Shown here piece after piece: positions 34,313-41,217 of a stretch of DNA of 64,000 nucleotides (its first letter is position 1; every line of letters starts with the position of its first letter). The stretch spans positions 1,523,111 to 1,587,110 of the forward strand of contig OY760073.1 in the NCBI GenBank assembly GCA_963663025.1, read 5' to 3'. The stretch comes from Dehalococcoidia bacterium. GTDB taxonomy: Bacteria; Chloroflexota; Dehalococcoidia; Lucifugimonadales; JAGWBF01. A program made the position numbers and the translations under genes. The notes under the pieces were generated by a model. That model was not told the DNA's origin. It saw nothing but the letters and a program-made list of their open reading frames with translations, and searched no databases.

Positions 34313-35507
34313 ATGACGGGAGTCCTGCAGGACAAAAACATCGTCCTGGGCGTAACGGGCAGCATCGCCTGCTACAAAGCCCTGGACCTGGCCAGCAAGC
34401 TCACCCAGGCGGGGGCCGGCGTGGACACCATCATGAGCTACGGGGCAACCCAGTTCGTCGCGCCTCTCGCCTTCCGCAGCCTCACCCACCGGCCCGTGAC
34501 CGTCGATGTGTTCGACCCGGACTCGGAGCTGAGCATCGAGCACGTCCAGCTTGCCGGGAGGGCTGACATCGTTGTCGTGGCCCCCGCCACCGCCCACTTC
34601 ATAGCCAAGGCGGCATGGGGATTCGCCGACGACCCCCTGACCACCACCATCCTGGCCACCCAGGCCCCGGTGCTTATCGCTCCGGCCATGGACGGACACA
34701 TGTACGAAAACCAGGCGACCCAGGACAACATCGAGAAGCTAAAGTCCAGGGGCATCCGCTTCGTCGGCCCAGCCAGCGGACACCTTGCATCAGGACTTGT
34801 GGGCATGGGCCGCTTGGTGGAAGTCCCCCAGCTTGTGGGCCACATCAGCGCCCTGCTGGGGAGGGACGGCGACCTTGCCGGGCGCACCGTAGTCGTCAGC
34901 GCCGGGGGCACCCAGGAAGCCATCGACCCGGTGCGCGTGATCACCAACCACTCCTCGGGGAAGATGGGCTACGCCCTGGCCGAAGCGGCCCGGGACCGGG
35001 GCGCCAGGGTGATCCTCGTCTCGGCGCCTACCGGCTTGGACGACCCGGCGTCCCTGGAGGTCATCAAGGTGCGCTCGGCCACCGAGATGCGGGACGCTGT
35101 GCTGGCAGCGGGTCCAGGGCGCCGACGCACTGATAATGGCGGCGGCGGTGGCCGACTACCAACCCTCCGATGTGGCGGGCCAGAAGATCAAGAAAGACAA
35201 CTCGGCGTTGACCATCGAATTGGAAAGGACGCCGGACATCCTCCAGGAGGCCCAGGGCAGCTTCCTGAGGGTCGGGTTCGCTGCCGAGACCGAGGAACTG
35301 CTGGCGAACGCCCGGGACAAGCTGGAGCGCAAGGCCTTGGACCTGATCGTAGCCAACGATGTGTCAGCAGAAGGGTCGGGGTTCGGCGGGGACACCAACA
35401 AGGTGACTCTTGTCGGCAAGTCCGGGGAGGCGGAAGACCTGCCCATGATGTCCAAGCAGGACGTAGCCCATCACATCCTGGACAGGGTGAAGGCGCTGCT
35501 GGGTTAG
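34313..35507 (+). CDS. coaBC: Bifunctional PPC decarboxylase / PPC synthetase, apparent +1 frameshift at GGG 35110-35112
   Basis: GVTGSIACYK, APATA, PAMD, AGGTQEAIDPVR and NHSSGKMG motifs. Removing one G gives AVLAAVQGADALIMAAAVADY, continuing to GFAAET...IVANDV. Confidence 0.92.
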
Positions 35508-35602
35508 CTCAGCCCCGCGGGTTCGGGTGGCGGGCTGCCTTAGTTTCAGCAGCTACCTTCCCGCGAGATCTCGTCATCTGGCGAAGGCCACAGAGTTGCT
35601 CA
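35460..35602 (+). repeat. Junction repeat copy 1: true coaBC 3' end + orphan gcvPB 3' end + about 55 bp extension
   Basis: Minus strand 35547-35509 reads ETKAARHPNPRG*, versus EAKAARHPNLRG* in gcvPB; the extension is shared with copy 3. Confidence 0.9.
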
Positions 35603-35624
35603 GTTGTACGGTATATCATACAAT
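35596..35624 (+). promoter_or_regulatory. Promoter/operator of the TA operon (probably leaderless)
   Basis: TTGCTC-17 nt-TACAAT ending 6 nt before ATG 35631; TTGTA-N10-TACAA palindrome at 35604-35623. Confidence 0.6.
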
Positions 35625-39551: not shown

Positions 39552-39759
39552 TTCTTCCCTCTAGTGACTTGACCATGCCCAATGCAAGTCACTCCCATCA
39601 GATCCTAGAAGAGCATCCACGTTTTGTGTCATGAGGACATCTACGTCAAGTAGTGATATGCCTGATATTTGGGACTTAGCGTAGTGGTGCCGTTACTAAC
39701 AGTGGAGCAGCAATCTATATTGCCAGTGTTCTATTGTACCCGGTTCCTTACGACGTAAG

Positions 39760-41217
39760 CTACCCCCGCAGGTTTGGGTGACGGGCTGCCTTGGCTTCGT
39801 CCAGGCGGGTGACCGGGGTGGTGTGGGGAGCGCCGGTAACCAGTTCGGGGTCCTCGGCAACTTCCCGGTCGATGGCCTTCATCACATCGATGAAAGCATC
39901 CAGGGTTTCCTTGCTCTCGGCCTCGGTAGGCTCGATCATCAGGGCTTCTTCGACGATGAGGGGGAAGTACATGGTGGGGGAGTGGAACCCGTAGTCCAGC
40001 AGCCTCTTGGCGATGTCCAGGCCCTTGACACCCTTGGCCCGCTGGTCCTTGGACGAGAGTATGACCTCATGCATGCACCGGCGGTCGTAGGGCAGGTGGT
40101 AGGTGTCCCTCAGCGCTTCCAGCAGGTAGTTGGCGTTGATCACCGCATCTCCGCTTATCTGCTCCAGACCCGATGCTCCCAGGCTCCGTATGTAGGTGTA
40201 CGCCCTCACCAGCACACCGAAGTTGCCGTGGAACCCGCCTACCCTTCCAATGCTATCGGGCGGAGACTCCAGAGAGTACACCTCCCCGCCGTTTTCCGTG
40301 TTCTTGACGACGATGGGCGATGGAAGATAAGGCAGCAGGGTGTCCGAGACGCATACGGGCCCTGAACCCGGACCACCTCCGCCATGGGGGGTGGAGAAGG
40401 TCTTATGCAGGTTGAGGTGCACAACGTCGAACCCCATGTGCCCCAGCTTGGCGCGACCTAGGAGAGCGTTCATGTTGGCGCCGTCGCCATACACCAGCCC
40501 GCCGGCCCGGTGCACCATGTCGCACAGACCGACGATGTCGTTGTTGAACAACCCCAGGGTGTTGGGCTGGGTAATCATCACACCGGCAAGCCTGTCCGAC
40601 GCCAGCTCTGCCATGCGGTCCATGTCCATGTTGCCCTTGTCGCTGGACGCTACGCTGACGACCTCGAAGCCAGCCATGGCGGCGGAAGCCGGGTTGGTGC
40701 CGTGGGCGCTGTCGGGTATAGCCACCACGGTGCGCTTATCATCGCCCCGCTGCTTGTGGTATTCCCTGATCATCAGCATGCCGCACAGCTCACCCTGGGC
40801 ACCGGCCAGGGGCGCCAGGCTGGTCCCCTTCATGCCAGTGATCTCCGCCAGGTAACCTTGGAGCATGTACATCAACTGCAGGCTTCCCTGGGCCTGCCCG
40901 TCGGTCTGGCGAGGATGGGAGGCTGCAAAGCCGGGCATGAAAGCTATCTCTTCGTTCAACTTGGGATTGTACTTCATGGTGCAGCTGCCCAAGGGGTAGA
41001 AGTTGGTGTCTATGGAGTAGTTCAGCCGGCTTAGGTTGGTGAAGTAACGCACCAGCTCCGGCTCGCTGAGCTCGGGCAGGGGCAAGTCGTCCCTTAAGAG
41101 ATGGTCTCCGGGAAGGAGCTGCGCGGGAACATCCAGGTCCGGAAGGTTGGACCCAATCCGACCCGGGGTGCTCCGTTCCATCAAGGTGCGCCTGTCAAAG
41201 GACGGCAGCGCGCTCAT
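39760..41217 (-). CDS. gcvPB: Glycine dehydrogenase (decarboxylating) subunit 2
   Basis: PLGSCTMKYNP, SAHGTNPASA and HLNLHKTFSTPHGGGGPG motifs. Confidence 0.96.
   Translation of the reverse strand: MSALPSFDRRTLMERSTPGRIGSNLPDLDVPAQLLPGDHLLRDDLPLPELSEPELVRYFTNLSRLNYSIDTNFYPLGSCTMKYNPKLNEEIAFMPGFAASHPRQTDGQAQGSLQLMYMLQGYLAEITGMKGTSLAPLAGAQGELCGMLMIREYHKQRGDDKRTVVAIPDSAHGTNPASAAMAGFEVVSVASSDKGNMDMDRMAELASDRLAGVMITQPNTLGLFNNDIVGLCDMVHRAGGLVYGDGANMNALLGRAKLGHMGFDVVHLNLHKTFSTPHGGGGPGSGPVCVSDTLLPYLPSPIVVKNTENGGEVYSLESPPDSIGRVGGFHGNFGVLVRAYTYIRSLGASGLEQISGDAVINANYLLEALRDTYHLPYDRRCMHEVILSSKDQRAKGVKGLDIAKRLLDYGFHSPTMYFPLIVEEALMIEPTEAESKETLDAFIDVMKAIDREVAEDPELVTGAPHTTPVTRLDEAKAARHPNLRG

Follow-up and report, generated by a model that had tools for sequence, protein, structure and literature searches.

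A stacked array of gene blocks and junction copies between coaBC and gcvPB in a Dehalococcoidia bacterium

Insertion with long target duplication (ILTD) is known from genome comparison, mainly for restriction-modification genes, and its mechanism is given in PMC2853133 as a hypothesis only. The underlying screen (Furuta 2010, PMC2853133) required restriction (R) and modification (M) genes, with solo mcrA and orphan M genes also listed. Here, we have analyzed a window of 64,000 nt from a Dehalococcoidia bacterium (assembly GCA_963663025.1, contig OY760073.1, positions 1,523,111 to 1,587,110 of the forward strand). The genome under study is labelled G000 and its same-genus relatives G001 to G005. 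The convergent genes coaBC (plus strand, ending at 35507) and gcvPB (minus strand, ending at 39760) enclose three cargo blocks, in this order a type II toxin-antitoxin (TA) pair, a META-domain lipoprotein gene, and a GmrSD_N/DUF262 gene on the opposite strand. The blocks are set apart by diverged copies of the coaBC/gcvPB junction, 79–84% alike. This array is a stacked case of ILTD and not an integron. Its value is a readable mechanism: the microhomology joint, the hybrid junction, two-allele stacks, and allele-like repeat pairs let the steps be read, and with them the description of ILTD becomes a model open to testing, according to which essential genes can gather defence and surface genes behind them without an integrase. 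Such slots would likely escape island finders that depend on an integrase or a tRNA.

Comparison with described systems

Like the ILTDs of PMC2853133, the inserts are shorter than 20 kb, carry no integrase, transposase, or other mobility gene, and are flanked by a duplication of more than 30 bp that is otherwise unique (matches of 46–143 nt, none elsewhere in the genome). An empty one-copy site exists in a relative, G004, where the interval of 26 bp possibly includes a small scar. As in the account of PMC2853133, duplications span a start or a stop so that the target stays whole, the host has competence genes, and restriction-type cargo is included (DUF262, McrBC-like, methylase-HNH). Unlike there, cargo is mostly not of the R-M type (TA pairs, lipoproteins), and the present array holds a solo GmrSD/DUF262 gene, a TA pair, and a lipoprotein gene instead of R and M genes. 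Several units are stacked at a single site, hybrid copies occur, repeat identity is 77–100% as compared to about 96–100% in the Table 2 rows of PMC2853133, about 13 sites occur in one genome, and a joint can be traced to microhomology.

A partial lacZ duplication (109–950 bp in the 14 sequenced) was present in 56 of 60 E. coli recombinants; PMC3240628 ascribes it to a single crossover of a re-circularized molecule with trimmed homology. This system and homology-facilitated illegitimate recombination (HFIR), with a usual microhomology of 3–10 bp, resemble the present locus in combining one homologous anchor with one illegitimate joint. However, the system of PMC3240628 is a laboratory plasmid system operating at about 6e-9 per recipient, whereas the route proposed here is inferred, and classical HFIR deletes rather than duplicates. 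Neisseria minimal mobile elements, as described in PMC3787668, likewise have variable cargo between conserved genes and no recombinase. Those elements are exchanged by recombination in their flanks and replace cargo, whereas here cargo also adds up and gene ends are duplicated. Different cargo between the same two conserved genes was also found here in close relatives.

Integrons are rows of small cassettes with TA and defence cargo and related repeats; they are marked by IntI, an attC hairpin, co-oriented cassettes, and a Pc promoter. The present locus shares the row of small cassettes, the TA and defence cargo, and the related repeats between them. It differs in the other features, and the integron-like array proposed in an initial annotation of this DNA was not upheld beyond analogy. 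An integron integrase (TIGR02249) scored over the cut-off in none of the six genus genomes. Folding of the three copies on both strands gave z-scores of −1.11 to +0.73, no better than shuffles, hence no attC-like structure, and the junction copies had no Rfam match. Cargo lies on both strands, with the DUF262 gene in opposite orientation and the TA pair behind its own conserved predicted promoter; the repeats are gene-end scars, and the site is not a dedicated one. No description of stacked long-duplication arrays was found among the top listings of open-access text, judged by title and start of abstract.

Junction copies and cargo of the array

The three-unit array is real, with order and gene identities as described. 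The initial annotation had given this order, the gene identities, and the junction copies, and all were borne out by gene calls, Pfam/TIGR matches, and repeat comparison. Copies 1 and 3 are 81% identical over 143 nt, copies 1 and 2 84% over 95 nt, and copies 2 and 3 79% over 91 nt; furthermore, copy 2 matches gcvPB at 84% over 121 nt and copy 3 matches the gcvPB end at 89% over 46 nt. The best repeat in the array scored 137 bits, whereas 60 shuffles gave at most 28.3, and a genome-wide repeat comparison revealed no further junction copy. Short-read contigs of two runs, both from one study, extend across copy 1 and copy 3 with 0–1 differences. The annotated coordinates of copy 3 and of the gcvPB end were reproduced, whereas copy 2 ends at 36451, 8 nt past the annotated position 36443.

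Copy 1 is made up of 48 nt that form the working end of coaBC, a displaced gcvPB end of about 40 nt, and a 55-nt extension. Copy 2 comprises the antitoxin end, the microhomology GACGTAGCCC (36277–36286), 48 nt of displaced coaBC, and about 120 nt of displaced gcvPB. The final codons of the antitoxin gene overlap this joint. Besides G000, 400 genomes of the class were searched for the TA DNA; 10 of them have homologues, which lie at 12 places. At unrelated loci in G197 and G389, the antitoxin gene ends with GCATCGACG-TAG-CCC, and this end matches coaBC 48 nt before its stop codon over 10 and 11 nt, respectively. The TA cassette itself therefore supplies the left edge of copy 2 with its end, the joint being a microhomology; the 10-mer of the match occurs 16 times in the genome. 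The left edge common to copies 2 and 3, CATCGACGT, is present only at 36273 and 37709; it is the antitoxin gene's own end and not mutated coaBC.

Copy 3 opens with this TA-derived edge although the META gene precedes it. Its left part is of the right type (TA end and displaced coaBC), and its right part is of the left type (displaced gcvPB and extension). The extension of about 55 nt common to copies 1 and 3 ends with ACAGAGTTGCTCA, a sequence present only at 35590 and 37843. Both in copy 1 and in G005 the extension lies ahead of the TA promoter, and in copy 3 it stops just past the −35 box. Because a TA-derived left edge is combined with a TA-derived right extension, copy 3 is a hybrid of a right-hand and a left-hand copy, in agreement with the mosaic structure noted earlier. 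Such a hybrid would be the product expected from a crossover of two alleles at their junction copies.

The putative −35 box of the TA promoter in the copy 1 extension (TTGCTC, 35596–35601) agrees with only 3 of 6 consensus positions, and the promoter was not called by a consensus scan. In homologous TA loci, the −10 box (TACAAT, 35619–35624) is kept, and the register of the upstream box is the same in G005 (TTGAGA) and G162 (TTCACG).

Relatives and similar sites

Downstream regions of gcvPB were fetched for 40 loci; 19 contained coaBC, 15 of these in the same convergent layout. The fixed interval that the initial annotation had named as counting against it was not seen: in the genus the interval varies from 26 to 4253 bp with differing cargo. 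It measures 26 bp without cargo in G004, 829 bp in G005 (TA between two junction copies), 1565 bp in G001 (HNH remnant, open reading frame (ORF) of unknown type, and antitoxin, with two junction copies), and 3650 bp in G002 (methylase-HNH gene, unknown ORF, antitoxin fragment, and META, with one worn junction copy). The G000 interval measures 4253 bp. G003 has other cargo after coaBC, with coaBC and gcvPB on separate contigs. The 26-bp interval of G004 (L114:16927-16953) resembles the left flank of G001 and may be an excision scar. None of the 11 convergent loci from other genera had a junction copy, other genes filling the interval; thus, the array is limited to the genus among the loci examined. 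A metagenome scan with gcvPB yielded 80 loci, all distant and none with coaBC within reach.

The two copies of G001 share G001-specific letters, with a coaBC part 0.88 identical within G001 and 0.62–0.82 to other genomes, which points to conversion or to insertion into the genome's own site. Relatives with no cargo, with TA only, and with other sets, together with the hybrid copy 3 and the letters shared within G001, agree with the additive events and recombination among junction copies proposed earlier.

The whole genome was also screened for similar scars. Of the 1697 genes called, 13 are accompanied at a distance of 0.2–20 kb by a low-copy duplicate of their last 90 nt, one of the 13 being a paralog remnant; all 17 gene-end matches lie downstream, whereas a mid-gene control gave 1. 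After high-copy palindromic repeats, tandem paralogs, and an exact 491-nt tandem duplication had been dropped, about 13 sites were left, coaBC/gcvPB included, two of them at 5′ ends. Targets include glnS, ftsH, thpR, a major facilitator superfamily (MFS) gene, an aldehyde dehydrogenase gene, and a ROK kinase gene, and the cargo is often TA-like or restriction-like. Since about 12 unrelated gene ends carry a similar scar, and META and TA cargo occur at other sites, the coaBC/gcvPB junction is no dedicated site.

Several of these sites are empty in relatives. The glnS site is empty in four of five genus relatives, and the MFS cassette is present in G000 and G001 and absent from G002, G003, and G005. 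Two further sites lie in the window (Table 1), and their cargo is absent from all five relatives, which have clean empty sites. The first holds 1.3 kb with a Pro/Thr-rich lipoprotein-like gene; at the second, the McrBC-like insert appears to supply a new start to the ROK kinase gene. At ftsH, two small TA-like cassettes are stacked with partial ftsH-end copies (L172, G000:C1:2025395-2027013), and they are split among relatives, the left one in G002 and the right one in G005.

The same cargo was also met at other targets. In G005, a META cassette lies at a CofD-family gene inside its own duplication of 151 nt and 77% identity (L273, G005:C1:756860-758420), at a distance of 31 kb from the coaBC site. 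At the left joint of this cassette, 24 of 26 nt agree with coaBC 35385–35410, hinting that it may have moved from the coaBC array via a microhomology joint; the left boundary of META differs between the sites. TA lies inside long repeats at 2 of its 12 loci, at unrelated sites in G345 (123 nt, 81%) and G162 (48 nt, 94%). In G044, from another family, a 111-nt duplicate of the gcvPB 3′ end with 95% identity surrounds two small unknown ORFs (L140:1749-2501).

Codon changes were used to trace where the two copies came from. Over 18 coding segments, none with an internal stop, 69 synonymous and 62 replacement changes separate displaced from working copies, similar to orthologues with 71 and 52 (16 comparable segments; Fisher p = 0.45). 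On the displaced branch, polarized by outgroups, the ratio was 34:43, above the neutral share of 0.30 with transition bias (p = 0.007, 15 segments; thpR and 360727 were omitted as they had no outgroup, and MFS was omitted as its two copies do not differ). These p-values overstate the evidence because sites are few and kin are not independent. The youngest long pair, 348 nt with 97% identity around 2.1 kb of low-GC DNA at a gene of G005 named ftsK-like by eye from sequence (L236, G005:C1:933230-936085), has nine synonymous changes to one replacement over 339 nt. Judged from these counts (69:62, 34:43, and 9:1), some pairs consist of two alleles that once worked. Two working alleles would be expected if, for some pairs, one had arrived with the cargo or had been refreshed from relatives.

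Proposed route and alternatives

We consider it probable that the array is an integrase-free stack, founded by a microhomology-joined insertion that duplicated the junction and grown by homologous recombination between the leftover copies. In the founding event, a mobile TA pair would have been attached through its own end to a point of coaBC 48 nt ahead of the stop codon, at the observed microhomology of 10–11 nt, and on the other side to a point about 40 nt within the end of gcvPB; this would have duplicated about 90 nt and left both host genes whole. In variant alleles, the interior of the slot would then have been swapped for META, DUF262, or methylase-HNH genes, with scraps of the TA flanks left behind. 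Cargo would come to lie in series if the right-hand copy of one allele crossed over with the left-hand copy of a second; the hybrid copy and the two-allele stack at ftsH are seen, and from these we infer the route. The DNA would have come from relatives, probably by natural transformation, or from a circle formed by closure between copies. Such recombination would remove units as well, and through it copies would be refreshed from working alleles. The locus likely functions as a low-cost slot for the turnover of defence-type and surface genes, with no dedicated capture machine. A wider proposal is offered tentatively: capture without a recombinase may prime itself genome-wide, the duplicated junction being a reusable landing pad at which alleles from relatives stack via RecA alone, and the allele-pair and microhomology signatures may provide the mechanism missing for ILTD.

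G000 encodes ComEC and DprA. MutS is present in all five genomes searched; loss of mismatch repair as an enabling factor was therefore rejected.

Several points weigh against the favored route. MutS should hinder crossover in repeats of 50–150 nt that are 80–90% identical, and natural competence of G000 would follow from two genes only, ComEC and DprA. A junction crossover does not account for the right-end joint of copy 2. On the displaced branch, the coaBC/gcvPB array itself has 8 synonymous to 16 replacement changes, a neutral-like ratio that fits plain decay; hence, the array copies alone do not show an origin from a foreign allele. Only 6 of 53 clean indels of at least 400 nt between G000 and G005 (examined over the first 1.6 of 2.37 Mb of G005) have a low-copy long flanking repeat, so that the long-duplication route is a minority route among indels. 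The relatives compared are other species (G005 at about 87% identity) and not strain-level variants, and some encode other integrases and serine recombinases elsewhere in the genome. Where copy 2 and the gcvPB end have an exact repeat in common, short-read contigs break with 28-nt overlaps, and at this point it is the single-contig assembly that provides contiguity. The source sample may be among the two runs, and they are not independent. A deletion joint skipping a unit was not found in the two contig sets, whose depth of about 4–8x is too shallow to show absence.

Integrative elements typically replace gene ends and accrete in tandem. The units might be tandem site-specific islands that target the gcvPB/coaBC end and bring a replacement 3′ end, with integrases lost or acting in trans and the 55-nt extension serving as an att arm. 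The extension is common to the TA unit, the DUF262 unit, and G005, extra tyrosine and serine recombinases exist in relatives, and replacement ends under selection would likewise yield synonymous differences. However, no integrase was found in any of the five genus alleles of the coaBC-gcvPB interval. G000 (assembly 94% complete) has only two PF00589 proteins, XerD and an XerC-like tyrosine recombinase in a housekeeping context, and no PF00239 resolvase. About 13 different targets, 5′ ends included, with duplications of 35–348 nt do not fit a fixed att core with arms. The 18 cargos lack a common end motif except for the TA/DUF262 extension, which was not found elsewhere among 28 family genomes. 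Moreover, the same cargo sits at unrelated targets, and at the TA joint the microhomology involves the stop region of the cargo itself. We therefore regard islands as an unlikely source of the array. Matches to serine recombinases (18) and DDE transposases (66) in G004 are far above those of its congeners.

Independent insertions during break repair appear improbable to a similar degree. Here, the duplication would derive from the sister chromosome, be identical at birth, and remain as a passive scar without recombination between copies. The neutral-like decay of the displaced array copies (8:16) speaks for such scars, as do coaBC copies that are more alike within than between genomes (0.93 for copies 1 and 2), and nuclease-type cargo fits the double-strand-break idea of PMC2853133. 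Such scars do not account for copy 3 as a hybrid, for the TA-derived edges of the META and DUF262 units, for the stack of two alleles at ftsH, or for the 9:1 ftsK-like pair. End-joining by Ku was rejected, as Ku was not found in any of the five genomes searched, which also speaks against break repair.

Transposases like those of IS1634 and IS1549 produce long, variable target duplications. Movement of non-autonomous transposons by such an enzyme would account for the variable long duplications and for the same cargo at different sites, and DDE transposases occur in relatives. It is very unlikely, however: terminal inverted repeats were absent from all 18 cargos (shuffle p 0.08–1.0), no IS1634 transposase scored over the cut-off in the six genus genomes, PF01609 had no match in G000, the META left boundary varies between sites, and target duplication would not yield allele-like pairs. 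Collapse of strain alleles into one contig, to which the contig breaks at the copy 2/gcvPB repeat would lend support, is scarcely credible with copies diverged by 16–21%, copies 1 and 3 bridged by contigs without differences, and an antitoxin remnant, META, and junction in the same order in G002.

Features of the window

The features of the array and the two further sites in the window are compiled in Table 1. The coaBC gene is split by an apparent frameshift near 35110; the one extra base is absent from short-read contig X1 and is likely an assembly error. The META protein has a Pro/Thr-rich linker and, from reading of the sequence by eye, a predicted lipoprotein signal. The DUF262 protein, encoded by a gene of 51% GC, is a candidate defence nuclease. 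Just before the true gcvPB end lies a 7-nt match to the TA end, which has a frequency of 5.5e-5 per position in the genome; this trace is suggestive only and may be a collapsed fourth copy.

Table 1. Positions of host genes, junction copies, cargo, and further duplication sites in the window
Feature	Position	Strand	Basis or remark
coaBC, host gene	34313..35507	+	Pfam Flavoprotein and DFP
Junction copy 1, left type	35460..35602	+	Repeat comparison; extension common to copy 3 and G005 left copy
Predicted TA promoter, −35 TTGCTC, 17-nt spacer, −10 TACAAT	35596..35624	+	Homologous TA loci
Type II TA toxin, RelE/ParE family	35631..35930	+	TIGR02683
Antitoxin, HI1420-like	35927..36283	+	TIGR02684
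Junction copy 2, right type	36273..36451	+	Repeat comparison
META-domain protein, 316 aa	36732..37682	+	Pfam META
Junction copy 3, hybrid	37709..37855	+	Comparison with other copies and TA homologues
GmrSD_N/DUF262 protein, 555 aa	37884..39551	-	Pfam PF03235; PADLOC PDC-M55C and HEC-05 matches
Possible collapsed fourth right-type copy	39751..39761	+	CGACGTA joined to AGCT of junction
gcvPB, host gene, intact	39760..41217	-	Pfam GDC-P and GcvP2_C
Second site: aldehyde dehydrogenase/glycosyltransferase junction duplication	49549..51246		181 nt, 90%
Third site: ROK kinase 5′ end duplication around McrBC-like pair	52850..56965		158 nt, 88%

Additionally, the exact 491-nt tandem duplication, which lies over a gene start (L165, G000:C1:818021-819002), is either a recent event or an assembly error. 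Short high-copy palindromic repeats resembling repetitive extragenic palindromic (REP) elements are located in the window at 33471–33495, 34266–34290, and 42014–42034 and occur genome-wide with up to about 270 BLAST matches; they are dense near G000:C1:1.82-1.94 Mb.

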